Assembly: GCF_004376175.1 (NCBI RefSeq)
Contig: NZ_SNUY01000038.1
Coordinates: forward strand, 1-32,000
Direction: 5' to 3'
From: Halalkalibacterium halodurans
Lineage (GTDB): Bacteria; Bacillota; Bacilli; Bacillales; Bacillaceae_D
Length of the DNA stretch: 32,000 bases
A program made the position numbers and the translations under genes. The notes under the pieces were generated by a model. That model saw nothing but the letters and a program-made list of their open reading frames with translations, was not told the origin of the DNA and ran no database searches. Each line of letters starts with the position of its first letter. Positions within the stretch are counted from its first letter, which is position 1. Shown here piece by piece: positions 2,723 to 20,522 of this stretch.

Positions 2723-3544
2723 TTGGGAAAGCATGACGGGCATGTCCATACCCCTTTTTGTCCACATGGTACGAAGGATTCATTCGATGCTTATTGCGAG
2801 CGGGCCATTTCTCTTGGGTTTACGAGCCTGTCTTTCACCGAGCATGCCCCTTTGCCTAAAGGATTTACAGACCCGACCCCTGCGCAAGACAGCAGTATCG
2901 GGTGGAATGAGTTGGATGATTATATTCATACACTATCGTCAATAAAAAAAGCTTATCGGGACCAGCTAACGATTTATATCGGTTTGGAAGTGGATTTTAT
3001 TGAGGGATTTGAAGAGGAGATTTGCACGTTTTTAAATGAATATGGTCCATTGCTCGATGATAGTTTGCTCTCGGTTCATTTTTTGAAGCATTCTGATCGA
3101 TATTTTTGCATTGATTATAGTCCTGATGTGTTTGCAGTGGCCATCCGAACGTTCGGATCAATCCAAGCGGTTTATGATGCCTACTACCGTACATTGGAGC
3201 GTTCGATTACTTCAGAACTTGGACCGTACAAGCCAAAGCGAATTGGTCATATGACCCTGGTGAACAAATTTCAAAAAAAATTTCCAGCGCCTTCTACGGA
3301 ACACCAGAAAAAAAGCCAGCTCGAGATCCTCCATTTAGTAAAAAAGCACGGCTACAGTCTTGATTATAACGGGGCTGGCTTTATTAAACCATTATGCGGT
3401 GAATCTTATCCACCTGAATCCATTGCAAAAGAAGCCGTCGCTTTAGGCATCCCGCTTATCTATGGGTCTGACGCCCACCAAGCAAAGGCACTTGCAACCG
3501 GATGGGAACAAATGAACGCAACGCTCAAGAGTCAAGGTGAATAA
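2723..3544 (+). CDS. hisJ: Histidinol-phosphatase, PHP family (HisJ/HisK type)
   Basis: [13 protein letters not shown]...FTEHAPLP...GSDAH are PHP-domain metal-binding motifs. I place the start at TTG 2723 behind GAGAGGGTG rather than the ORF-track GTG 2660. Position matches B. subtilis hisJ (ytvP). Confidence 0.8.
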
Positions 3545-10338: not shown

Positions 10339-11067
10339 TTATGTACAAATCATTAGCACATGACCGTCTGGATCAATCACTTGAAAACAAAGGGTGTAAC
10401 CAATCGAACGCCCTTTTCTTACTTCAATCCCCGCCCGGCTTAGGGCGCAATAGGATTCATAGATAAGTCTCGGGTTTTTTGTACGAAACCCTTTGAGGAA
10501 TTGTTCGAACATCGTGGAATCGATTTTTTCAGCACGAACCGATGGACCGATCTGCGGTTCCATATCTGAATAAGAGCGAACTTGTAAATAACGCTGGAGC
10601 TTTTTCTTCGCACGATGCAACGTCGTATACACGTTCGACTCAGATTCATTCATTAAGGTCGCCGTCTCTTTCGCGGTAAAAGCAAATACGTTAGATAGTA
10701 AAAGAGCAACGAATTGTTTTATTGTTAAATACTCCGCGAGCACTTCTAAAAGCTCTCGACTCTCATATTCTTCGTGAAAGTGTAGCTCCTGCATCACATC
10801 GTCTATTGGTTCAACCTGTAGCTGCCTTTTACGTTTTCTATCAATCCACGTATGTTTAATGATTCGATAGAAGAAGGTTTTCGTCATTTTTCGATCAGGT
10901 TGCTGTTTCATCGCTAGGTAGATTTTTATAAGGCTATCCTGAAATAAGTCCTCAGACTCCCATTTATTATGAGTTAACCGCTTACAATACCATTTCATCT
11001 CATAAAAAAATGGGGAGACTTTTTTCTCAAACTTCGACTCATCAAGAGGCTCCTGTTCATCTCTCAT
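10339..11067 (-). CDS. Sigma-70 family (ECF-like) sigma factor with a roughly 80 aa C-terminal extension resembling a single VOC module
   Basis: Region 2-like: ESEDLFQDSLIKIYLAM...FFYRIIKHTWIDRKRKR. Region 4 HTH-like: FTAKETATLMNESESNVYTTLHRAKKKLQRYL. The tail ...YCALSRAGIEVRKGRSIGYTLCFQVIDPDGHVLMI matches the terminal helix and beta-strands of the neighbouring VOC proteins. The start is placed at ATG 11067 behind GGGTGAGG. Confidence 0.6.
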   Translation of the reverse strand: MRDEQEPLDESKFEKKVSPFFYEMKWYCKRLTHNKWESEDLFQDSLIKIYLAMKQQPDRKMTKTFFYRIIKHTWIDRKRKRQLQVEPIDDVMQELHFHEEYESRELLEVLAEYLTIKQFVALLLSNVFAFTAKETATLMNESESNVYTTLHRAKKKLQRYLQVRSYSDMEPQIGPSVRAEKIDSTMFEQFLKGFRTKNPRLIYESYCALSRAGIEVRKGRSIGYTLCFQVIDPDGHVLMICT

Positions 11068-11104
11068 TTCTGCCTCACCCATTCCATCATTTTTTTAAAG
11101 GCAC

Positions 11105-11299
11105 TTATTCTTTGTTTTTTGATTTTCTAAATTGTATGACACACTCTCTACAAATGCATGATTTCCCTACATGCTCTGGTGGAACTAAAAGAAAGATTCC
11201 ATTCGGAAACACTTCGTCATTGCACCAGCAATCACCATATCCGCAGTTGTTTCCTTTGCCACAAATCGGGCAATGCTTGTTTTGTTCGCTCTTGGGCAT
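11105..11299 (-). CDS. Cysteine-rich CWC-family small protein
   Basis: MPKSEQNKHCPICGKGNNCGYGDCWCNDEVFPNGIFLLVPPEHVGKSCICRECV, giving the pattern CPxCG...C...CWC...CxCxxC. The start is placed at ATG 11299 behind AGCAGGGAAA. The ORF-track ATG 11335 falls inside a TATAAT box. Confidence 0.6.
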   Translation of the reverse strand: MPKSEQNKHCPICGKGNNCGYGDCWCNDEVFPNGIFLLVPPEHVGKSCICRECVIQFRKSKNKE

Positions 11300-11333
11300 G
11301 AGATTTCCCTGCTTTCTGTTCGAATCTTCTCTC

Positions 11334-11362
11334 ATTATAAGAAATAAAGTGGTTGTAATCTA
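11334..11362 (-). promoter_or_regulatory. Candidate SigA promoter for the CWC/sigma operon
   Basis: Minus strand: TATAAT (11339..11334), preceded after a 17-nt spacer by a weak -35, TAGATT. Confidence 0.35.
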
Positions 11363-11653: not shown

Positions 11654-13018
11654 CTATAGATAGGTTGCTAGCGATGAAGCAATCGCAAAATAGAGGAGTA
11701 GACCGACTATGTCATTAATCGTTGTAATGAATGGGCCTGAAGCAACGGTAGGATCTATACGTAATTTATGAATAATGATCGGGATGATTGTGCCCGTCAT
11801 TGTTGAGATGACGACCGTGCCAAAAAGCGCTGTTCCAACGATCAGCCCAAGAGCCATGTTGCCAAAGCCATAAAATTGAGCTAGCAACGCGGCAAAGAGT
11901 CCGCACACGATCCCCATAATAAGCCCGGTCAACAGCTCTCGTTTAATCATTCGTCGACACGTTGGATGTTTCAGCTTTTCTAAGGTTAACTGCCTGACGA
12001 CAACCGCTAATGACTGCGTCCCTGTATTCCCTCCCATATCGGTTATGAGTGGGATGAAAATGGCAAGTAACGCAAGCTGGGCAAGTGTGTCTTCAAAGTG
12101 TTGAACGACGCTTGCAGTCGCCATCCCAAAAACCATTAATAGAAGAAGCCAAGGTAAACGTTTCATTGCTGCTTTGATTGGATGAACTTCTAGATTGATC
12201 GAACCCTTTGCCCCTGCCAGTTCCTCAAAATCTCCGGTTACTTCATCCTCCACAACGTCCATGACATCATCTACTGTCACGATCCCGATCATTTGATTGG
12301 TCTCTGTTGTGACGGGGATCGCGACAATGTCATAGTCACGTATCAGTTGTACAACCTCCCGCTGATCTGTATGGGGAAAAACAGAGATCACGTGCTTTTT
12401 CATTAGCTGTCGGACCGTTTCATGTAATGAAGAGGTTAAGACATCTTTTAACGAGAGGACACCCATCAGTTGATTGTTCTCGTTTACAACATAAAGGTAG
12501 TAGATCATTTCGGCATCTTTGCCCTCGGCGCGAAGCGTTTCGAATACATCTGCCACCGTTTTTTCTTGCTGAATGGTCAAATATTCAGTCGTCATCAAGG
12601 AACCAGCTGTCTTTTTCTCATAAGACATTAAACGCTTGATGGCATGGGCCTCCTGTTCATCCATACGATCTAAAAAATAGCCGGTCAAATGATTAGGAAT
12701 CTCCTCAAAAAAGTCGGTCATATCGTCTGGTGCCATTTCTTCGAACATTTTAATCGTGTAAGACTCTTTCAGCTCTGTGACAATCTGTTTTTGTTGGTTC
12801 CGTTCCATCCCTCTAAATATAGGAGCAAACTCTTTCGGCCCAATCCATTCATACACTCGCTTCCGCTTTTGAACGTTCAACTCCGAGAAAATCTCCACTT
12901 GATCAATAGGATGTAATGCAAGAAAATCATCGCGAAATTTTTCTCGTTCTTGTTCTTTTAAATACATGTGTAAGTAAAAGGTATACTCTTCTCTGTTTTT
13001 GAAGTCCAGCATCATCAT
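11654..13018 (-). CDS. mgtE: Magnesium transporter MgtE
   Basis: 454 aa from ATG 13018 behind AAGGAGG. It has an N-domain, tandem CBS domains (...VVNENNQLMGVLSLKDV..., ...TETNQMIGIVTVDDV...) and a C-terminal 5-TM domain with GNTGTQS. The ORF-track start 13069 overlaps mgtC. Confidence 0.92.
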   Translation of the reverse strand: MMMLDFKNREEYTFYLHMYLKEQEREKFRDDFLALHPIDQVEIFSELNVQKRKRVYEWIGPKEFAPIFRGMERNQQKQIVTELKESYTIKMFEEMAPDDMTDFFEEIPNHLTGYFLDRMDEQEAHAIKRLMSYEKKTAGSLMTTEYLTIQQEKTVADVFETLRAEGKDAEMIYYLYVVNENNQLMGVLSLKDVLTSSLHETVRQLMKKHVISVFPHTDQREVVQLIRDYDIVAIPVTTETNQMIGIVTVDDVMDVVEDEVTGDFEELAGAKGSINLEVHPIKAAMKRLPWLLLLMVFGMATASVVQHFEDTLAQLALLAIFIPLITDMGGNTGTQSLAVVVRQLTLEKLKHPTCRRMIKRELLTGLIMGIVCGLFAALLAQFYGFGNMALGLIVGTALFGTVVISTMTGTIIPIIIHKLRIDPTVASGPFITTINDIVGLLLYFAIASSLATYL

Positions 13019-13037
13019 GAGAAATCCTCCTTTCCTT

Positions 13038-13736
13038 TTACAAATGTTCCACATCAACGGTGAGAACATGGTCGATCTTTTTGATGAGGTAATAAATTTC
13101 CGTCGTATATTGTTTTTCTGGAGCCGATAAAATCAGTTCCACTTGCTGATTACCGTTCTCTAAATCTTTTAATTTCAGATGGCGAATGCGGATGTCGCTC
13201 CCTTTTTTAGCCATGCTCGTTTTTCGTTCAATCGATTGGATTAGTTCCGTCATTCTCATATTCGGCTCCATGACCATCTTGACCGCCACATCTCGTTGCC
13301 GAAGAGAAGAAGGCCCCACTTTTTTCACGAGTTGAGGAAAGACATTTATCGCTAGCATTAAAAGGACTACCATATACCCTGCTTCAATGTAGAAGCCTGC
13401 GCCAACAGCAATTCCTAATCCTGACGCTGCCCAAATCATTGCAGCTGTCGTCAGACCGGAAATGACATCATTTCGTTTTCTTAAAATAACTCCCGCCCCT
13501 AAAAAACCGACACCGCTCACAATTTGCGCCGCTAAGCGCATTGGATCCATATTATTAAACATCGGGGTCGCAAACCTGTGAAACGATTCGACCGACACGA
13601 TCGTTACTAGACAGCTGGCAACACAAATGACCATGCTCGTCTTTAATCCTAAAGGTTTGTGCTTTAACTGACGGTCAATACCAATCAATAATCCGAAAAA
13701 TAATGCGATGCTTAATTTCATTAACAGTTCTGTCAT
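13038..13736 (-). CDS. MgtC/SapB-family membrane protein
   Basis: LLMKLSIALFFGLLIGIDRQLKHKPLGLKTSMVICVASCLVTIV...AQIVSGVGFLGAGVILR...GLTTAAMIWAASGLGIAVGAG is the MgtC signature. A soluble C-terminal domain follows. The start is ATG 13736 or GTG 13745. Confidence 0.85.
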   Translation of the reverse strand: MTELLMKLSIALFFGLLIGIDRQLKHKPLGLKTSMVICVASCLVTIVSVESFHRFATPMFNNMDPMRLAAQIVSGVGFLGAGVILRKRNDVISGLTTAAMIWAASGLGIAVGAGFYIEAGYMVVLLMLAINVFPQLVKKVGPSSLRQRDVAVKMVMEPNMRMTELIQSIERKTSMAKKGSDIRIRHLKLKDLENGNQQVELILSAPEKQYTTEIYYLIKKIDHVLTVDVEHL

Positions 13737-13825
13737 TTCGTTCACCTGCTTTCCTCACTTATGGTTAGAAAAATGTTTTATAGCAAAAACCGTTGTTCGT
13801 CACAAAAGCTAAACTTCCTTAAAGT

Positions 13826-13860
13826 GCAAAAAGCCTACCTTCTACAAATAAAGGTAGGCT
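13826..13860 (-). terminator. Expression-platform terminator of M-box 1
   Basis: Minus strand: AGCCTACCTT-loop-AAGGTAGGCT followed by TTTTTG. The 5' arm can alternatively pair with the aptamer segment AGGTGAGGCT, which would form an antiterminator. Confidence 0.75.
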
Positions 13861-13898
13861 CCCCAAACACACTCATGTTCTATGAGCGAGATTCCCTT

Positions 13899-14047
13899 CA
13901 TTCGTAGAGCTTTAGCACTGTATGGCATAGGACATTGCCAGCTACATTAAAAATCACCTTATGTCGATGATTTCTGTTGACCCATTGGCGTCTCTGGACG
14001 TTTTTGGGCAGCAGCATATCTCCATACAGGAGCCTCACCTAACGAAG
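13899..14047 (-). promoter_or_regulatory. M-box (ykoK leader) Mg2+ riboswitch aptamer, copy 1, controlling mgtC-mgtE
   Basis: The minus strand reads CTTCGTTAGGTGAGGCTCCTGTATGGAGATATGCTGCTGCCCAAAAACGTCCAGAGACGCCAATGGGTCAACAGAAATCATCGACATAAGGTGATTTTTAATGTAGCTGGCAATGTCCTATGCCATACAGTGCTAAAGCTCTACGAATGAAG. As I recall it, this is nearly colinear with the B. subtilis mgtE M-box. Confidence 0.9.
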
Positions 14048-14060
14048 TGGTTGTACGTAT

Positions 14061-14153
14061 TTACTTGTCCGCTATCATCGAAAAGGCAGCGATGGTTACC
14101 GTTGCGCCAATTGAGATAAACATGTTCCCTTGATCATGTGACTCACTGTCCAT
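14061..14153 (-). CDS. Unannotated 30-aa hydrophobic small protein between the two M-boxes
   Basis: GGAGGTG, then 7 nt, then ATG (14153). Translation is MDSESHDQGNMFISIGATVTIAAFSMIADK with stop TAA at 14063..14061. It has one predicted TM-length hydrophobic stretch. It is too short for the ORF track. Confidence 0.5.
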   Translation of the reverse strand: MDSESHDQGNMFISIGATVTIAAFSMIADK

Positions 14154-14192
14154 CTCTTACCACCTCCACTGCTTCTAAGAAAGGGATAGCTC

Positions 14193-14225
14193 AAAAAAAA
14201 TCACCCTCATACGAATGAAGGTGAT
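14193..14225 (-). terminator. Intrinsic terminator downstream of M-box 2
   Basis: Minus strand: ATCACCTTCAT-TCGT-ATGAGGGTGAT followed by T8 (14200..14193). The 5' arm is complementary to the aptamer segment AAGGTGAT. Confidence 0.75.
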
Positions 14226-14351
14226 TACGTCATGTTTCCATTGTTCAAAAAACGAAAGCCTGATGCCAAGACGATCATAAGAAACGCACACTATAATCGT
14301 AAAGATGCCCCTTTATCGGGCATAGCGATGGCAATGGCCACTGTTGTCCCC

Positions 14352-14494
14352 CATTCGTAGAGCTTTAGCACTGTATGGCATAGGACGTTGCCAGCTACAT
14401 TAAAAATCACCTTATGTCGATGATTTCTGTTGACCCATTGGCGTCTTTGGACGAGCAGCAGCATATCTCCATACAGGAGCCTCACCTAACGAAG
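14352..14494 (-). promoter_or_regulatory. M-box Mg2+ riboswitch aptamer, copy 2
   Basis: Same sequence as copy 1 apart from two substitutions and one short replacement (7 nt in copy 1 against 1 nt here, in the GCTGCTGCC-CAAAAA segment). The P1 3' strand differs but can still pair (GTCTTCG with CGAATGGGGGAC). Confidence 0.85.
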
Positions 14495-14521
14495 ACATTT
14501 ATGAAATTTTTTACAACTCAT

Positions 14522-14550
14522 AGACTACATGAAGATATTTTACCTGTCAA
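14522..14550 (-). promoter_or_regulatory. Candidate promoter of the M-box/mgtCE transcript
   Basis: Minus strand: TTGACA (14550..14545), 17-nt spacer, weak -10 TAGTCT (14527..14522). Confidence 0.35.
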
Positions 14551-14555
14551 TAGGC

Positions 14556-14585
14556 GAAAAGCCGGAGGATTGCATTCCTCCAGCT
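14556..14585 (-). terminator. Terminator of the DAACS transporter gene
   Basis: Minus strand: GCTGGAGGA-ATGCAA-TCCTCCGGC followed by TTTTCG. It begins 5 nt after the stop. Confidence 0.6.
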
Positions 14586-14589
14586 CTCT

Positions 14590-15732
14590 TTACCCTTTAT
14601 TGGATATTTTATCGATAAACAAGGCGATCGCGCCATCTCCTGTCACATTGGTTGCTGTGCCAAAGCTATCTTGGGCCATATAAAGAGCAATCATTAAACC
14701 GATAGCTGCCTCACTAAAGCCGAGCATCGAGGCTAACACTCCCGTGGCGGCCATTACAGCTCCTCCAGGAACGCCTGGTGCTGCGATCATGATGACTCCT
14801 AGCATTGCGATGACGGGGAGCATTGTGAAATAAGTTGGTGTCGCAAGCCCCTCCATCACCATCATGACTGCTAATGAGCAGCTGACGATCGTAATCGTAC
14901 TCCCTGATAAATGAATCGTTGCACATAACGGGATCGAGAAGTTGGCAATATCTTCTTTGATCCCATTTTGTTTTGCTTGCCTTAATGTAACTGGAATCGT
15001 AGCCGCACTACTCATCGTACCTAAGCCGGTAAAATAAGCTGGGAGCATTGTTTTCAACAGAGCGAATGGATTTCGGCCAATATAGGAACCAGCCGCGACA
15101 TATTGAATCGTAATCCAGACCCAATGGGTGAGAATCGCGACCACTAACACGACGCCAAATACTTGCAATGTGGCGAAGACGGTTCCTTCTGCCGCAATCC
15201 CTGCAAAAATACCAGCGATGTAAAAAGGCAATAACGGAATGATCGCTTTCACAATGATTAACTCAACAACTGCTTTTCCTTCATCAAAAAAACGGATCAA
15301 GGTATCGCTTTTCAACATCGTCATACTTATACCGAAAGCAAATGCTAAAACTAATGCAGTCACTACACCCATGATCGGTGCAATTTCAAAATCAATAAAA
15401 CTTGCCAGACTAGCCCCTTCCTCTGGAACGCCTCCATCTTTTGCGACATACGGCATGACAAATGAGGCCACAAAGAATGCTAACGTGCCCGCTAGTAGTG
15501 TAGATACATAAGCTGTTCCTACCGTAAGACCAACCATCTTCCCTGAACCATTTCCTAGCTTCGTCACCCCTGAAGCAATAAAAAACAAAATAATGAGCGG
15601 GATCATAAAGCGAATAAACTGACCGAGAATCACCTCAACGGTTAAAAAGATCCGTGTGATCCAATCAACACCTAGGAGACCGACGATAATTCCGACAATG
15701 ATTCCTGCAAGTAACTTGAGAATAAGCTTCAT
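14590..15732 (-). CDS. Dicarboxylate/amino acid:cation symporter (DAACS/SDF family) transporter
   Basis: 380 aa polytopic membrane protein. Family-like motifs: ...GTMSSAATIPVTL...SIPLCATIHLSGSTITI...AAPGVPGGAVMAA...AQDSFGTATNVTGDGAIA. The substrate cannot be assigned from sequence. Confidence 0.7.
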   Translation of the reverse strand: MKLILKLLAGIIVGIIVGLLGVDWITRIFLTVEVILGQFIRFMIPLIILFFIASGVTKLGNGSGKMVGLTVGTAYVSTLLAGTLAFFVASFVMPYVAKDGGVPEEGASLASFIDFEIAPIMGVVTALVLAFAFGISMTMLKSDTLIRFFDEGKAVVELIIVKAIIPLLPFYIAGIFAGIAAEGTVFATLQVFGVVLVVAILTHWVWITIQYVAAGSYIGRNPFALLKTMLPAYFTGLGTMSSAATIPVTLRQAKQNGIKEDIANFSIPLCATIHLSGSTITIVSCSLAVMMVMEGLATPTYFTMLPVIAMLGVIMIAAPGVPGGAVMAATGVLASMLGFSEAAIGLMIALYMAQDSFGTATNVTGDGAIALFIDKISNKG

Positions 15733-15915: not shown

Positions 15916-17154
15916 TTACCGAACAAGCTTTTTAAATTTCCGTTTGCCCACTTGTACGATGAGGCCATCCTCTATTTCCACTTGTAACTGGACGTCTTCG
16001 ATTTTTTCACCGTTAAGCTTCACTCCGCCATTTTGCACCATTCGCCGTGCTTCACCTTTTGATGGCAATAAATCGAGGGTCACAAGCAAGTCCACAATCC
16101 AAACAGAGGATTCGCCATCCCACTTCACTTCTGGAATGTCCGTTGGCAAATCTCGCTTTTGGAAGACCGTTTTAAAGTAATTTACGGCTTCTTCAGCTTC
16201 GTTTTCGCCATGATACATTCGAACAAGCGTAGCGCCAAGCTTCATTTTCGCATCGCGTGGATGGACACTTCCATCTTCTAGGCCTTTTGCGATCGCTTTT
16301 ACTTCATCCATTGATAAATCGGTCGCTAACTCATAGTATTTCACCATGAGCTCATCTGGAATCGACATGGCCTTTCCAAAAATCTCATTTGGCGCCTCAT
16401 CAATACCAATGTAATTGTTTAAGGATTTAGACATTTTTCGTTCTCCATCCAATCCTTCGATTAACGGCATCGTGATCGCAACTTGCTTATCGTTTCCATA
16501 AGCTTCTTGAAGCATGCGCCCCATCAGCAGGTTGAACTTTTGATCCGTTCCGCCTATTTCAATATCCGACTCTAACGCTACCGAGTCATACCCTTGCATG
16601 AGCGGGTAGAAAAACTCATGGATGGAAATAGGCTGACCTGACTTGTATCGCTTTTCAAAGTCATCCCGTTCAAGCATCCGAGCGACGGTCATTTGACTCG
16701 CAAGCTTAATGACATCTTCAAAGTTAAGCGCGCTTAACCATTTTGAATTATAATGTAACGTTGCTTTTTCCATATCTAAAATTTTTCCGTACTGCTCCAC
16801 ATACGTCCGAGCATTCGCTTTCACTTGCTCATCGGTTAGCTGCTTTCTCGTCTCAGATTTACCAGATGGATCCCCAATTCGCCCGGTAAAATCCCCGATC
16901 AACATTTGCACCTCATGGCCAAGATCTTGGAATTGTCGCAGCTTATGAAGGACAACCGTATGACCGATATGAACATCAGGGGCTGACGGGTCCATCCCTA
17001 GCTTTACTTTTAACGGCTTACCTGTCCGAACCGACTTTTCAATTTTTTCTCGTAAAGCTTCTTCAGGGACAATTTCCACTACCCCACGCTTTAGAATTTC
17101 AAGCTGTCGCTCCACCTCTTGGGTTTGCTCTGGCGTTAACGCTTTTTCCTCCAC
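15916..17154 (-). CDS. tyrS: Tyrosine--tRNA ligase, bacterial type 2 (TyrZ/Thermus-like) with a C-terminal S4 domain
   Basis: HIGH motif (DVHIGHTV), KMSKS motif, [18 protein letters not shown], and a C-terminal S4-like segment [24 protein letters not shown] start behind AGGAGGAA. Confidence 0.9.
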
Positions 17155-17190: not shown

Positions 17191-17445
17191 TAAAAAAATA
17201 AAAAAACCCCTCCCACATAAGGGACGAGCTTACTCGCGGTACCACCCTTTTTGGAGAAATAGTAGCATTTCTCCCAACTCCAACATGATAACGGCATGCC
17301 CCGTTTCTTCACCAAAATAGCAAAGAAAAAGCTCCAAGCTGTACTTCACGAGTCGCCTTTGTACTGATTTGCACCAACCACCAGCTCTCTTTTTACAGGG
17401 AGACGTTCGCTACTGTCACTCTTCAACGCTCAATATTGATTCCAT
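17191..17445 (-). promoter_or_regulatory. T-box leader (tyrosine specifier UAC) with terminator/antiterminator
   Basis: On the minus strand: an AGAGAG element; a specifier-loop candidate GAAGUACA (UAC is the complement of plus-strand gta 17341-17343, followed by the usual purine); the T-box AAAAAGGGTGGTACCGCG (plus-strand cgcggtaccaccc, 17235-17247); then the hairpin CTCGTCCC/GGGAGGGG and a long T-tract (17206..17191). Confidence 0.85.
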
Positions 17446-17582: not shown

Positions 17583-20522
17583 ATGAAGAACGCCCTTTCG
17601 CAAATCCGTTCTCGCATTCAAACGATTATTACCATATTGCGAGAGAAGAAGATCTTTCGAGGGATTGGCGTAACCTATTTAGTTGCTTGGAACTTAACCC
17701 TTGTCTTTCTCGTTGGCGCCCTTGTCCTTTTCGTGTTTATCGGAAGTGCAGGCGCTGGCTATTTTGCTTCTCTCGTCCGGGATGAGCCTCTCCGCTCGGC
17801 AGATGAGATGAGGCAGGATATTTTTGATTATGAAGAAACGAGTCAAGTGTTCTTTGCAAACAATGTCTATCTCGGGGAACTTCCCGCAGAAGTAGAACGC
17901 CATTACGTTGCCCTCGACGACATCTCAGAACATCTCATACACGCGATTATCGCCACCGAGGATGAATACTTCTACGAGCATGATGGCATCGTTCCAAAAG
18001 CCATCCTACGCGCAACCTATCAAGAATTTGCTGGCTCTTCTGTCCAAACGGGAGGAAGCACGCTTACTCAACAGTTGATCAAAAACCAAATTCTAACGAG
18101 TGACGTTTCTTTTGACCGAAAAGCGACTGAAATTCTTCTCGCCATGCGCCTTGAACATTTTCTCGAAAAAGAAGAAATTCTTGAAGCTTACTTAAATGTT
18201 GTACCATTTGGACGGAACGCCTCAGGCAGGCAGGTCGCAGGTGCTCAAGCAGCGGCAAAAGGCATTTTCGGCGTTGACGCCAAAGATTTAAACCTGCCGC
18301 AAGCTGCTTTTATTGCTGGTCTTCCGCAAAGCCCATTCGGCTATACACCGTTTACGAGCACAGGGGAAGTAAAGGAAGATCTAGAGCCTGGACTTAGACG
18401 GATGAAAACCGTTTTAAACCGTCTTTACACCAATGGATACATTACAGAAAGTGAGCTAGAGGAAGCGCTAGACTATGACATACGTGAAAACTTAACAAAC
18501 CGTAAAAAATCGCCTATTGAAAAGTATCCATACTTAACCTATGAAGTGATGAAACGTGGAGAAGAAGTCCTCTACAACTTAAAATTAAAAGAGCTTGACG
18601 TTGATTTAGATGAGTTAGAGGAAGAAGAACGGCAATCACTTTTAAACAATCTTAGAGAAGAAGCGAAACATGAATTACGCCATAATGGCTACCGCATTCA
18701 TACGACCATTGACAAAAACATTTATGAAGCGATGAATAATGCAGTCAAGGACGACTCCCTTTTCGGACCGACGATTGCAGGGGAACAAGAACAAGTCGGT
18801 GCTCTCTTACTGGAAAATTCGACAGGGGCGATCAAAGGGTTCGTTGCTGGTCGCGATGAAGGAAGTGCAGAAGACCAATACAACCACGCGACGCAAGCGT
18901 ATCGTCCAAACGGATCAACGATGAAGCCGCTTTTAGCTTACGGTCCAGCGATGGAGATTGGTGCCGCTCAACCAGGTTTCGTCATTCCTGATACACCTGC
19001 AACGTATCCAGGCACTTCAACACCTATTAACAACTTTGATCGTACGCATATGGGACTCATCTCTGTTCGTGAATCGCTTGCCCGCTCTCGTAACGTTCCT
19101 GCCGTGCGTGCCTTTTTACAGGTGCCACATGAACAATCACGGGAAACGATGCGTAAGCTTGGTTTTCAGCTAAACGACGGAGAACCGTACCCTGCAGCAG
19201 CGTTAGGAGCAACCGATCACAACGTCACAGTAGAGCAAAACACGAACGCATTTGCTACGTTTGCAAACGGTGGTCAATACGTCGAATCCTATATGATCGA
19301 AAAAATTGAAACAGCAGACGGAACCGTAATTTATGAGCATAAATCAAAGTCAGTTGACGTGTTCACCCCACAGACATCGTACTTAATGATCGATATGATG
19401 CGCGACGTGCTCCGCGGTGTCGGAACAGCGAATTCTTTACCAGGACGAATGAAATTTTCTGCCGATTGGGCAGGAAAAACAGGAACATCAAGTGAGGTTA
19501 AGGATTCTTGGTTCGTTGGACTAAATCCGAACGTCACCTTGGGCGTATGGATCGGTTATGATACACCGAAAACGATTCAAAGCCCATGGAATGGCTTACG
19601 CTACGGGCCGCGTACGCAACAAATTTGGGCGCGAATTGCCAATGCTGCTTATGATGAAAATCCTGAGCTGATGGCACCGAATCAGTCGTTCGAAATGCCT
19701 GAAGGAATCGTCCGTCGATCCGTTTGTAGCATCACAGGAACCGCACCATCAAAAGCGTGTGAGCAAGCAGGGCTTGTGACATCCGATTTGTTCAACGCAA
19801 AGTTCTTGCCGAAATCTGGAGATGATGGTTTAGAATCTGCTCGTTACGTCACGATTAATGGAAAAAACTATTTAGCTCTTGATTCTACGCCACAAGAGTT
19901 CACAGAAGCTGGGCTACGGCTATCATCAGGGGCTTGGAACATGGACAACATAGGTAAATATTTGCCAGATAACCTAAAAGGATTAATTCCTGACAAAAAA
20001 GCACCGAATAACGGAAAAACGCCTGGTCCTGTCTCAAATATCCGCTTAAACGGCACGACGCTTCAATGGGATAAACATACAGCAGGTGACATTGTCGGGT
20101 ATCGAATCTATCGAGTGAATGGTGGCTCGACAGAACGGGTTGGCTCTGTTAAAGGAAACGAAACGACATCTTATAACGTCAGCAACGGTAACCATTCTTA
20201 TTATGTAACAGCCGTTGATTCGGTTGGTCGTGAATCTAGCCGCTCCTCAGCCGTTGATTCGGTTGGTCGTGAATCTAGCCGCTCCTCAGCCGTTCAAGGA
20301 AAAACTGCGAGCGTCTCATCAAAGAGTAGCCAGACATCCTCAGATGAAAAGAAAGAGGAGAAGAAAAAAGAAGAGAAGAAGGAAGAAAAGAAAGAGGAAA
20401 AGAAAGACGATAAGAAGAAGCAGGAGAACGAGCAAAACAACAAACGCGAAGACGATAAACCAGATGACGACGGAGGATCCGACGATGGGGATGATGATTC
20501 TTCTTCTGACGATGACCGTTAG
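17583..20522 (+). CDS. Class A (PBP1A-family) penicillin-binding protein: glycosyltransferase plus transpeptidase, an FN3-like domain and a low-complexity charged tail
   Basis: 979 aa. N-terminal TM. GT51 motifs EDEYFYEHDG, GGSTLTQQ, RKATE. Transpeptidase motifs STMK, SRN, KTGT. The FN3-like segment LNGTTLQWDKHTAGDIVGYRIYRVNG...YYVTAVDSVGRES. A K/E-rich then D-rich tail. RBS AAAGGAGG. Confidence 0.9.
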   Translation: MKNALSQIRSRIQTIITILREKKIFRGIGVTYLVAWNLTLVFLVGALVLFVFIGSAGAGYFASLVRDEPLRSADEMRQDIFDYEETSQVFFANNVYLGELPAEVERHYVALDDISEHLIHAIIATEDEYFYEHDGIVPKAILRATYQEFAGSSVQTGGSTLTQQLIKNQILTSDVSFDRKATEILLAMRLEHFLEKEEILEAYLNVVPFGRNASGRQVAGAQAAAKGIFGVDAKDLNLPQAAFIAGLPQSPFGYTPFTSTGEVKEDLEPGLRRMKTVLNRLYTNGYITESELEEALDYDIRENLTNRKKSPIEKYPYLTYEVMKRGEEVLYNLKLKELDVDLDELEEEERQSLLNNLREEAKHELRHNGYRIHTTIDKNIYEAMNNAVKDDSLFGPTIAGEQEQVGALLLENSTGAIKGFVAGRDEGSAEDQYNHATQAYRPNGSTMKPLLAYGPAMEIGAAQPGFVIPDTPATYPGTSTPINNFDRTHMGLISVRESLARSRNVPAVRAFLQVPHEQSRETMRKLGFQLNDGEPYPAAALGATDHNVTVEQNTNAFATFANGGQYVESYMIEKIETADGTVIYEHKSKSVDVFTPQTSYLMIDMMRDVLRGVGTANSLPGRMKFSADWAGKTGTSSEVKDSWFVGLNPNVTLGVWIGYDTPKTIQSPWNGLRYGPRTQQIWARIANAAYDENPELMAPNQSFEMPEGIVRRSVCSITGTAPSKACEQAGLVTSDLFNAKFLPKSGDDGLESARYVTINGKNYLALDSTPQEFTEAGLRLSSGAWNMDNIGKYLPDNLKGLIPDKKAPNNGKTPGPVSNIRLNGTTLQWDKHTAGDIVGYRIYRVNGGSTERVGSVKGNETTSYNVSNGNHSYYVTAVDSVGRESSRSSAVDSVGRESSRSSAVQGKTASVSSKSSQTSSDEKKEEKKKEEKKEEKKEEKKDDKKKQENEQNNKREDDKPDDDGGSDDGDDDSSSDDDR
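20211..20288 (+). repeat. Perfect 39-bp tandem duplication inside the PBP gene
   Basis: gccgttgattcggttggtcgtgaatctagccgctcctca occurs at 20211-20249 and again at 20250-20288, followed by a partial third start (gccgtt). It is in frame and duplicates AVDSVGRESSRSS. Confidence 0.95.

Follow-up and report, generated by a model that had tools for sequence, protein, structure and literature searches.

Two M-box riboswitches in series ahead of mgtC-mgtE in Halalkalibacterium halodurans: a tandem most likely left by loss of an intervening mgtE gene

At its Mg2+-homeostasis locus, Halalkalibacterium halodurans carries two M-box riboswitches, one after the other, on the minus strand ahead of the Mg2+ transport genes mgtC and mgtE, within a stretch of 32,000 nucleotides (nt) that we analysed at its full length (contig NZ_SNUY01000038.1 of assembly GCF_004376175.1, positions 1 to 32,000; hereafter the window). 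Each unit is a complete riboswitch, because an aptamer and a terminator/antiterminator expression platform were found for both. The best explanation, which we hold to be probable with reasonable though not full confidence, is serial M-box attenuation of mgtC-mgtE from one promoter, in a tandem that came about through loss of a gene, mgtE_a, from between the two switches and that was later touched by gene conversion.

The two riboswitches and their transcript

The Rfam 15 cmscan run over the whole window gave three matches above the gathering score, two to the M-box family RF00380 (Mg2+-I; gathering score 44 bits) and one to the T-box. The upstream copy, M-box_A, lies at 14342-14500 (-; 124.4 bits, E 1e-27), and the downstream copy, M-box_B, lies directly 5' of mgtC at 13890-14053 (-; 149.0 bits, E 3e-34), with a gap of 288 nt between them. 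The original prediction, made from the letters of the DNA, had placed two M-boxes at 14352-14494 and 13899-14047 on the minus strand, and the covariance search found both of them; the same spans delimit the repeat core shared by the copies (14494-14352 in M-box_A, 14047-13899 in M-box_B). Both matches are full-length and cover model positions 1-169. To call both aptamers complete was nevertheless slightly generous, since the P1-P6 architecture is intact in M-box_B while M-box_A is without 6 nt of P4, including part of the basal stem and the A-rich internal loop; the lower score of M-box_A follows from the broken P4 pairs, which cmscan marks. Within the core the copies differ (A versus B) by A/G in the L4 loop, by C/T in the L6 loop, and by TGCT------CG versus TGCCCAAAAACG. 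This agrees with the two substitutions and one short replacement noticed at first, the replacement amounting, in the upstream copy, to the loss of 6 nt and one substitution. The outer P1 strands, which lie outside the core, also differ (GUCUUC/GGGGAC in M-box_A, CACUUC/GAAGGG in M-box_B), and each pairs with its own partner, as had been proposed. In pair counts over 12 aptamers, 96% of cells were paired.

Terminator A occupies 14191-14226 (-), with a hairpin of 12 base pairs (bp) at 14226-14199 followed by a T8 tract (-15.6 kcal/mol, z -4.6). Terminator B occupies 13828-13860 (-), with a hairpin at 13860-13832 formed by AGCCUACCUU ... AAGGUAGGCU and followed by a U tract (-23.5 kcal/mol, z -5.2). 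In each unit the 3' strand of P1 is the antiterminator strand. That of M-box_A, UACGAAUGGGGG (14348-14359, -), pairs with CCUUCAUUCGUA in the 5' half of terminator A (14221-14210) over 12 bp, two of them G-U (duplex -15.2 kcal/mol), and that of M-box_B, CUACGAAUGAAGG (13895-13907, -), pairs with CCUUUAUUUGUAG in terminator B over 13 bp (duplex -14.8 kcal/mol). Each unit does have its own terminator, as first described, but the two are not unrelated, since both hairpins contain the core ACCUUyAUUyGUA, complementary to the P1 3' strand. The global minimum free energy (MFE) structure of unit A is the terminator rather than the antiterminator, and a constrained fold was needed to show how close the two states are (antiterminator -48.8 versus MFE -50.7, i.e., within 2 kcal/mol); in unit B the antiterminator is the MFE structure once the 5' part of the aptamer is omitted.

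Downstream of terminator B, mgtC (13038-13736, -) encodes an MgtC/SapB family protein (PF02308) of 232 amino acids (aa) from its ATG. NCBIfam MgtC/SapB models match it with a best E of 1.7e-33, yet under their curated cut-offs. The product from this ATG start is identical on about 20 H. halodurans contigs, including BA000004.3 (strain C-125) and CP040441.1, and the exact-product look-up of the version from a GTG start gave no match. The next gene, mgtE (11654-13018, -), encodes a Mg2+ channel of 454 aa (TIGR00400, 425 bits).

The putative sigma-A promoter ahead of M-box_A was read from the sequence as -35 TTGACA (14550-14545), a 17-nt spacer and -10 TAGTCT (14527-14522), all on the minus strand; the promoter scan did not flag it because TAGTCT matches at just three of six positions. 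Six other species (L001, L058, L060, L061, L062, and L063) have TTGACA-N17-TAnnnT at the corresponding position ahead of their first M-box, and the L062 copy was flagged by the scan. The promoter that the original prediction had set near 14522-14550 is thus kept in position in related species. Further upstream, at the 3' end of an SstT-like transporter gene, a terminator-like hairpin, GCUGGAGGA...UCCUCCGGC followed by UUUU (14562-14588, -), was read by eye, and a complementary hairpin was flagged at 14564-14581; we take it that this predicted terminator isolates the M-box unit from transcription upstream. The scan of the spacer from 14199 to 14053 found no promoter-like site with at least 9 of 12 matches, as had been anticipated, so that the sole recognisable promoter is the one upstream of M-box_A. 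This favours the single transcript proposed at the outset, and it makes serial attenuation of mgtC-mgtE the simplest reading.

High Mg2+ is known to compact the M-box aptamer, which then holds the antiterminator strand so that the terminator forms (reviewed in PMC7266159). In the window, a single transcript would start at the sigma-A promoter (about 14550-14522) and run through M-box_A, terminator A, a relic ORF (open reading frame) of 30 aa, M-box_B, terminator B, mgtC, and mgtE. Each M-box would act as an OFF switch: at high Mg2+ the aptamer would compact and keep its P1 3' strand, and the terminator hairpin would form; at low Mg2+ this strand would pair with the 5' half of the terminator, and the polymerase would read through. 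The serial read-through probabilities would multiply, and the shut-off of mgtC-mgtE should then be tighter and steeper than a single switch would give, a behaviour called "pseudo-cooperative."

Related operons and the origin of the tandem

The gene orders of related species indicate how the two switches came to be neighbours. The order M-box, terminator, small ORF, mgtE_a, mgtC, mgtE_b, with one M-box, is found in three species of Alkalihalobacterium, in Caldalkalibacillus mannanilyticus and in Bacillus sp. FJAT-45350 (L058), and Evansella clarkii has a single M-box directly before mgtC-mgtE. Halalkalibacter krulwichiae (L060; M-boxes at 2634-2800 and 3026-3192) has two M-boxes in direct series, then a small ORF and mgtE_a; its mgtC follows mgtE_a directly, with no counterpart of M-box_B. 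Alkalihalophilus marmarensis (L063; 1897-2065 and 3731-3893) has the order M-box, small ORF, mgtE_a, M-box, mgtC, mgtE_b, its second M-box starting 7 nt after the mgtE_a stop, and Halalkalibacter alkaliphilus (L062; 1431-1596, 1979-2143, and 3739-3900) has M-box, small ORF, M-box, small ORF, mgtE_a, M-box, mgtC, mgtE_b. In these two relatives 4-7 nt separate the mgtE_a stop from the M-box ahead of mgtC, which makes it an operon-internal switch.

By position, M-box_A is orthologous to the relatives' M-box before the small ORF and mgtE_a, and M-box_B to the one that L062 and L063 carry after mgtE_a and before mgtC; the M-boxes that precede mgtC have in common that aptamer and terminator are joined by a short linker. 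The operons of A. marmarensis, H. alkaliphilus, and H. krulwichiae share with the window the promoter type, M-box_A with its terminator and the start of the small ORF, and the order mgtC-mgtE_b, and the first two also share an M-box directly before mgtC. All three keep a full mgtE_a, whereas the window has just the 30-aa relic between its M-boxes. The window mgtE is 54.5% identical to mgtE_b of L001 versus 46% to its mgtE_a, and judging from this similarity it is the ortholog of mgtE_b. The gene orders of the relatives thus make the H. halodurans layout that of A. marmarensis minus mgtE_a, and we consider that the tandem most likely arose by loss of mgtE_a between two switches and was not built as such. 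Outside the species, no MgtC comes closer than 79% identity, and there are hence no close intermediates. Our initial model, in which M-box_B was a recent duplicate of M-box_A, was displaced by the M-box at the same position before mgtC in L062 and L063.

The small ORF of the relatives is a conserved leader ORF. In eight relatives it follows the terminator of the first M-box and consists of a Shine-Dalgarno sequence (SD) GGAGGTG, an ATG or TTG start, GAY, AGY and then codons for x-P-E-P-D/E-S, which gives the consensus M-D-S-x-P-E-P-D/E-S. It was located at 4372-4494 in L001, 4409-4525 in L002, 1722-1841 in L004, 4481-4597 in L005, from 3390 in L058, 3299-3418 in L060, 1772-1861 and 2239-2361 in L062, and 2229-2351 in L063. 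Synonymous changes (CCC/CCT, AGT/AGC, and TCG/TCT/TCA) and an in-frame 6-nt insertion in H. krulwichiae make up a substitution pattern that, as read from the codons, is that of a translated leader ORF. It occurs solely before mgtE_a, being absent after the mgtC-proximal M-box and in E. clarkii, and no description of it was found in the literature searched. Just after its stop, an anti-SD UCUCC can pair with the mgtE_a SD GGAGG (about 4495-4520 in L001, and the equivalent region in L002, L004, L058, L060, L062, L063, and L005), with weak consensus energy and helix; this hints that translation of the leader could open the mgtE_a ribosome-binding site. One may go further and regard M-box, terminator, and translated leader ORF, with the anti-SD:SD hairpin before mgtE, as a composite module of alkaliphilic Bacillaceae, a Gram-positive counterpart of Salmonella mgtL/mgtP that would add a translation-dependent input to Mg2+ sensing; with one to three such modules stacked in an operon, mgtE_a and then mgtC-mgtE_b would switch on at successively lower Mg2+. 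We regard this as speculative and rather improbable.

What remains of this region in H. halodurans is an ORF of 30 aa, MDSESHDQGNMFISIGATVTIAAFSMIADK (14061-14153, -), with an SD GGAGG 9 nt before its ATG and a gene called at this place in BA000004.3. Its stop lies 13 nt from the repeat core of M-box_B, the distance given in the original prediction, and 7 nt from the Rfam match; on the speculative view of a composite module, a ribosome terminating on an ORF that ends so close to M-box_B could influence the folding of the aptamer. The segment GGAGGTGGTAAGAG ATG GAC AGT (14167-14145) aligns with the start of the leader ORF of the eight relatives (SD GGAGGTG, start codon, GAY AGY). The window ORF begins MDSESHDQGN; it retains the SD and M-D-S-E-S, diverges afterwards, and has neither the P-E-P-D/E-S motif nor an mgtE directly downstream. 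Within it, ATTGGCGCAACGGTAACCAT (14092-14111, -), which encodes IGATV, probably remains from the lost mgtE_a: when it is aligned with the IGATVP codons in a transmembrane segment of mgtE_a from FJAT-45350, 19 of 20 columns match (one gap), none of 200 shuffles scored as high, and the ORF reads it in the frame that gives the same residues as the mgtE_a segment. The idea that the tail of the ORF is the C-terminus of MgtE was rejected at the protein level, where a BLOSUM62 local alignment against six MgtE_a proteins was no better than shuffles, and owing to this non-significant test the remnant is suggestive and not proven. When 13000-14700 was compared by blastn with 42 fetched loci, neither the spacer nor the linkers that follow the two aptamers had a homolog. 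Judging from these alignments, the 30-aa ORF is most likely the start of a leader ORF running into the debris of a lost gene, a relic that is probably vestigial.

The original prediction had treated this ORF as a coding unit with a threshold of its own, and the finding that it looks like a relic tells against that view. A fuller version of the same idea is that the ORF encodes a functional small membrane peptide which has to pass one checkpoint, versus two for mgtC-mgtE, in a designed two-threshold circuit. MgtR and MgtS are small membrane peptides comparable in size, and the ORF resembles them in size and hydrophobicity only. Its strong SD at good spacing, a stretch of 17 hydrophobic residues, and the gene call in BA000004.3 fit such a peptide; that it may have a function of this kind has its sole support in the intactness of the ORF, which is preserved, with one conservative I/M polymorphism, in 8/8 genomes (the window and seven other H. 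halodurans assemblies that span the region, including BA000004.3). On the other hand, just the SD and the first five residues are common with the relatives' leader ORF, and the remainder has no homolog in the fetched loci except the 20-nt mgtE_a fragment. No NCBIfam family matched the ORF at E up to 0.01, the exact-product look-up gave no match, and the species is too uniform for a dN/dS (nonsynonymous to synonymous substitution rate) test. Descent from a leader ORF and gene debris explains the ORF, and we find a designed circuit very unlikely.

Strain differences and sequence exchange between the copies

The seven other assemblies repeat the layout of the window; none of the eight genomes has lost either aptamer, and the differences in P2 compensate each other. 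The window is 99.0-99.7% identical to other H. halodurans contigs. In C-125 the two copies are about 92-94% identical, the figure depending on the columns compared, and score 139.7 bits (A) and 147.9 bits (B); the copies of the other strains are likewise about 92-94% alike. An alignment of 8,111 columns with six strains contains 21 columns private to the window, 19 of which fall within 14190-14500 (17 in M-box_A and two in the T tract of terminator A). From this clustering and from the strain differences it follows that the near-identity of the copies, correctly noticed in the window, is private to the window genome.

The private state of M-box_A resembles M-box_B. In the 5' strand of P2, CUGUGCUGG of the other strains is CUGUA-UGG in the window; after P2, GAUACGC is GAUAUGC; in loop L6, AUGAU is CAACG; in the 3' strand of P2, GCCGCACAG is GCCAUACAG; and in P4, where the other strains have no deletion, the window has one of 6 nt. 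At three of these sites the window M-box_A shows the exact state of M-box_B, and L6 is off by one base (CAACG versus CAATG). Among the M-box_B-like sites are the two strands of P2, separated by 97 nt. Four sites that are A-type in the seven other assemblies and now resemble M-box_B define a minimum tract at 14375-14472 (-), and it looks like a single gene-conversion tract of at least 98 nt accounts for the M-box_B-like sites.

Older exchange is suggested by features common to both H. halodurans aptamers, namely a compensatory pair in P5 (U-A, versus C-G in all relatives of that comparison) and CUUCG in P1. M-box_B is itself a mosaic, its P1 5' strand and distal P2 being like the mgtC-proximal M-boxes of the relatives and its centre and 3' end like their first M-boxes. 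Such a mosaic and the shared features fit repeated exchange between neighbouring copies, of which the window would be the latest event. Loss of mgtE_a would have brought the two switches to within 290 nt of each other, and the copies would then have exchanged sequence by gene conversion, with M-box_A partly overwritten by M-box_B in the window genome.

The P4 change, private to the window, lies between 14454 and 14453 (-) of M-box_A: 6 nt are lost and a C has become T, so that TGCCCAAAAACG reads TGCT------CG. With them go two pairs of the basal P4 stem and the conserved A-rich internal loop, a segment that varies little or not at all in 14 other aptamers; the deletion allele had no exact match in the metagenome contig collection. 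According to the structural literature, the M-box L4 tetraloop docks on the base of P2 beside antiterminator nucleotides, and A117 contacts the P4 pair C57-G83 (PMC3764141). With one P4 strand shortened by 6 nt and C57 changed, docking of L4 should be impaired and L4 would fail to reach its receptor, so the deletion probably weakens Mg2+ sensing by M-box_A. Unit A would then leak or be constitutively open, control would come mainly from M-box_B with its stronger terminator, and the two-checkpoint behaviour of this strain may be reduced to roughly one. The proposal that both aptamers are maintained accordingly holds for the eight genomes, with the qualification that the M-box_A of the window is probably impaired.

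Other polymorphisms of the leader were seen. C-125 is without 18 nt between the promoter and M-box_A (window 14498-14515), three assemblies are without ACA just 3' of the aptamer (window 14345-14347), and the T tract of terminator A is changed at window 14197, its tail being T8 in the window and T5AT4 in the seven other assemblies. Three contigs (L049, L050, and L055), from independent short-read assemblies, start at window 13967, inside M-box_B.

The repeat thus interrupts assemblies, and it could yield a chimeric consensus sequence too. The near-identity of the copies and the 6-nt deletion might then be an artefact of assembly or polishing, a notion to which the three assemblies broken within the repeat, the confinement of 19 of the 21 private columns to 311 nt, and the absence of the deletion allele from the metagenome collection lend some colour. 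We think an artefact decidedly unlikely: the changes include position 14197 in the T tract, outside the repeat, the deletion matches neither copy and would not be created by mis-mapping of reads between the copies, and elsewhere in the window the divergence from other strains is of the extent usual between strains.

The deletion can also be read as decay. M-box_A would be a leftover after the loss of mgtE_a, the tandem would have no selected function, deletion and conversion would reflect relaxed constraint, and M-box_B alone would control mgtC-mgtE. The relatives have a whole mgtE gene after M-box_A, the private deletion drops the Rfam score from 139.7 to 124.4 bits, and the 30-aa ORF has lost the conserved PEP motif of the leader ORF, all as decay would predict. 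Against this, M-box_A scores 139.7 bits in C-125 and the private aptamer changes of the window are absent from the seven other assemblies, where the terminator and antiterminator strands are identical to those of the window save for the T tract. A working terminator A gates everything downstream, which would place M-box_A under selection regardless of its original purpose. In addition, mgtE_a of H. krulwichiae and of H. alkaliphilus is still preceded by two M-boxes in direct series, so serial M-boxes appear tolerated or favoured in the clade. We judge decay to be unlikely.

Several points weigh against serial attenuation in a tandem left by gene loss. M-box_A still scores 124 bits with its deletion, the effect of which is taken from the structural literature. 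The mgtE_a remnant is just 20 nt long and was not significant at the protein level. Overall, H. halodurans M-box_B resembles A-type aptamers more (90-92%) than it does the B-type aptamers of the relatives (85-89%), and given this mosaic copy M-box_B may have originated by lineage-specific duplication. The -10 hexamer TAGTCT is weak, and the co-transcription that we propose is argued from the absence of a recognisable promoter in the spacer. Finally, L062 and L063 carry, as seen by eye, TTGCCA/TTGCAA-18-TATAAA overlapping the mgtE_a stop just 5' of M-box_B (about 3700-3735 in L062 and about 3690-3725 in L063), which the scan missed because the last base of the -10 is A. This motif is possibly a separate promoter of the mgtC unit in these two relatives, and M-box_B may therefore once have owned a promoter.

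Such a promoter, if present in or near the 30-aa ORF of H. halodurans, would make the two riboswitches independent units, the upstream one yielding a short Mg2+-regulated RNA or peptide and the operon seeing one checkpoint. Besides the motif in L062 and L063, a promoter-like CTCACA-17-TATAAT between the first leader ORF and the second M-box of L062 speaks for this arrangement. It is opposed by the empty scan of the spacer, by the finding that promoter-like sites in the region are no more numerous than in shuffles, and by the fact that no counterpart of TATAAA was seen by eye before the M-box_B of H. halodurans. Independent units seem to us unlikely, and we retain serial attenuation from one promoter.

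Known systems and neighbouring features

The units are typical of the M-box class, of which the Bacillus subtilis mgtE (ykoK) leader is the reference (RF00380; Dann et al., 2007, as cited in PMC7266159), in their full covariance match, their platform built on the P1 3' strand and their Mg2+ transport genes. They depart from it in that M-box_A of the window is without 6 nt of P4 that are kept in the 14 other aptamers compared, and in that the operon starts with mgtC and not with mgtE.

Serial M-boxes had been thought to be undescribed, above all with a coding unit between them, and neither part of this claim can be upheld. Sherlock et al. (2022) list tandem Mg2+-I riboswitches with multiple expression platforms in their Table 1, with four representatives and citing Sudarsan et al. 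(2006) (PMC9481103), and for tandem M-boxes PMC4759541 refers to Barrick (2004) and Dann (2007). Moreover, the relatives described above carry two or three M-boxes per operon, with whole genes or leader ORFs between them. In a pseudo-cooperative tandem two riboswitches respond to the same ligand through separate platforms, as in the thiamine pyrophosphate (TPP) riboswitches of Bacillus anthracis (Welz and Breaker, 2007; PMC9481103). The window is alike in having two riboswitches of the same class in series, with their own terminators, 288 nt apart and with no recognisable promoter between them, and a steeper and tighter response would be expected of it. The survey of Sherlock et al. (2022) accepted gaps of up to 300 nt without an intervening ORF (PMC9481103); the 288-nt gap is within this limit, but the SD-led 30-aa ORF is excluded by the second condition, which is a filter of one survey and not a mechanistic requirement. 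The arrangement in the window also differs in having apparently come about as a side effect of gene loss.

The Salmonella mgtA and mgtCBR leaders encode the leader peptides mgtL and mgtP. The leader ORF of the relatives is likewise short, has proline codons, and lies 3' of a Mg2+-sensing RNA in the leader of a Mg2+ transporter mRNA. The riboswitch class and the phylum are different, however, the likeness is one of layout, and the H. halodurans copy is without both the PEP motif and the cargo gene.

The tandem M-box itself adds little, because both the class and the logic of tandems are in the literature and riboswitch surveys have included this genome for two decades. Its by-products, i.e., the operons with one to three M-boxes, the leader ORF, and the P4 deletion allele, seem to be of more interest. 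The locus provides a worked example of how a tandem riboswitch may originate, likely by loss of a gene between operon-internal switches and not by duplication for sharper control. It also provides adjacent paralogous aptamers that exchange sequence, with one strain apparently caught just after conversion. Comparison of the natural P4 deletion allele with the wild type could reveal the contribution of the first checkpoint. Halalkalibacter, Alkalihalophilus, and Halalkalibacterium, with one to three M-boxes per mgtE-mgtC-mgtE operon and the leader ORF, would make a good system for graded, multi-threshold Mg2+ control.

Elsewhere in the window, the T-box leader mentioned above (17217-17435, -; 123 bits) is followed by tyrS (15916-17154). 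The SstT-like transporter, of the SDF family (14590-15732, -), lies 183 nt after tyrS on the same strand and may be co-regulated with it. Four consecutive paralogs of the glyoxalase/VOC family (PF00903; 8674-10263, -) lie downstream of a gene for an extracytoplasmic function (ECF)-type sigma factor (10339-11082) and of a Cys-rich CWC gene (11105-11335). The C-terminal tail of a class A penicillin-binding protein (17583-20522, +) is of low complexity: a SVGRESSRSSAV unit is duplicated in it, KKEE is repeated, and the end is acidic.

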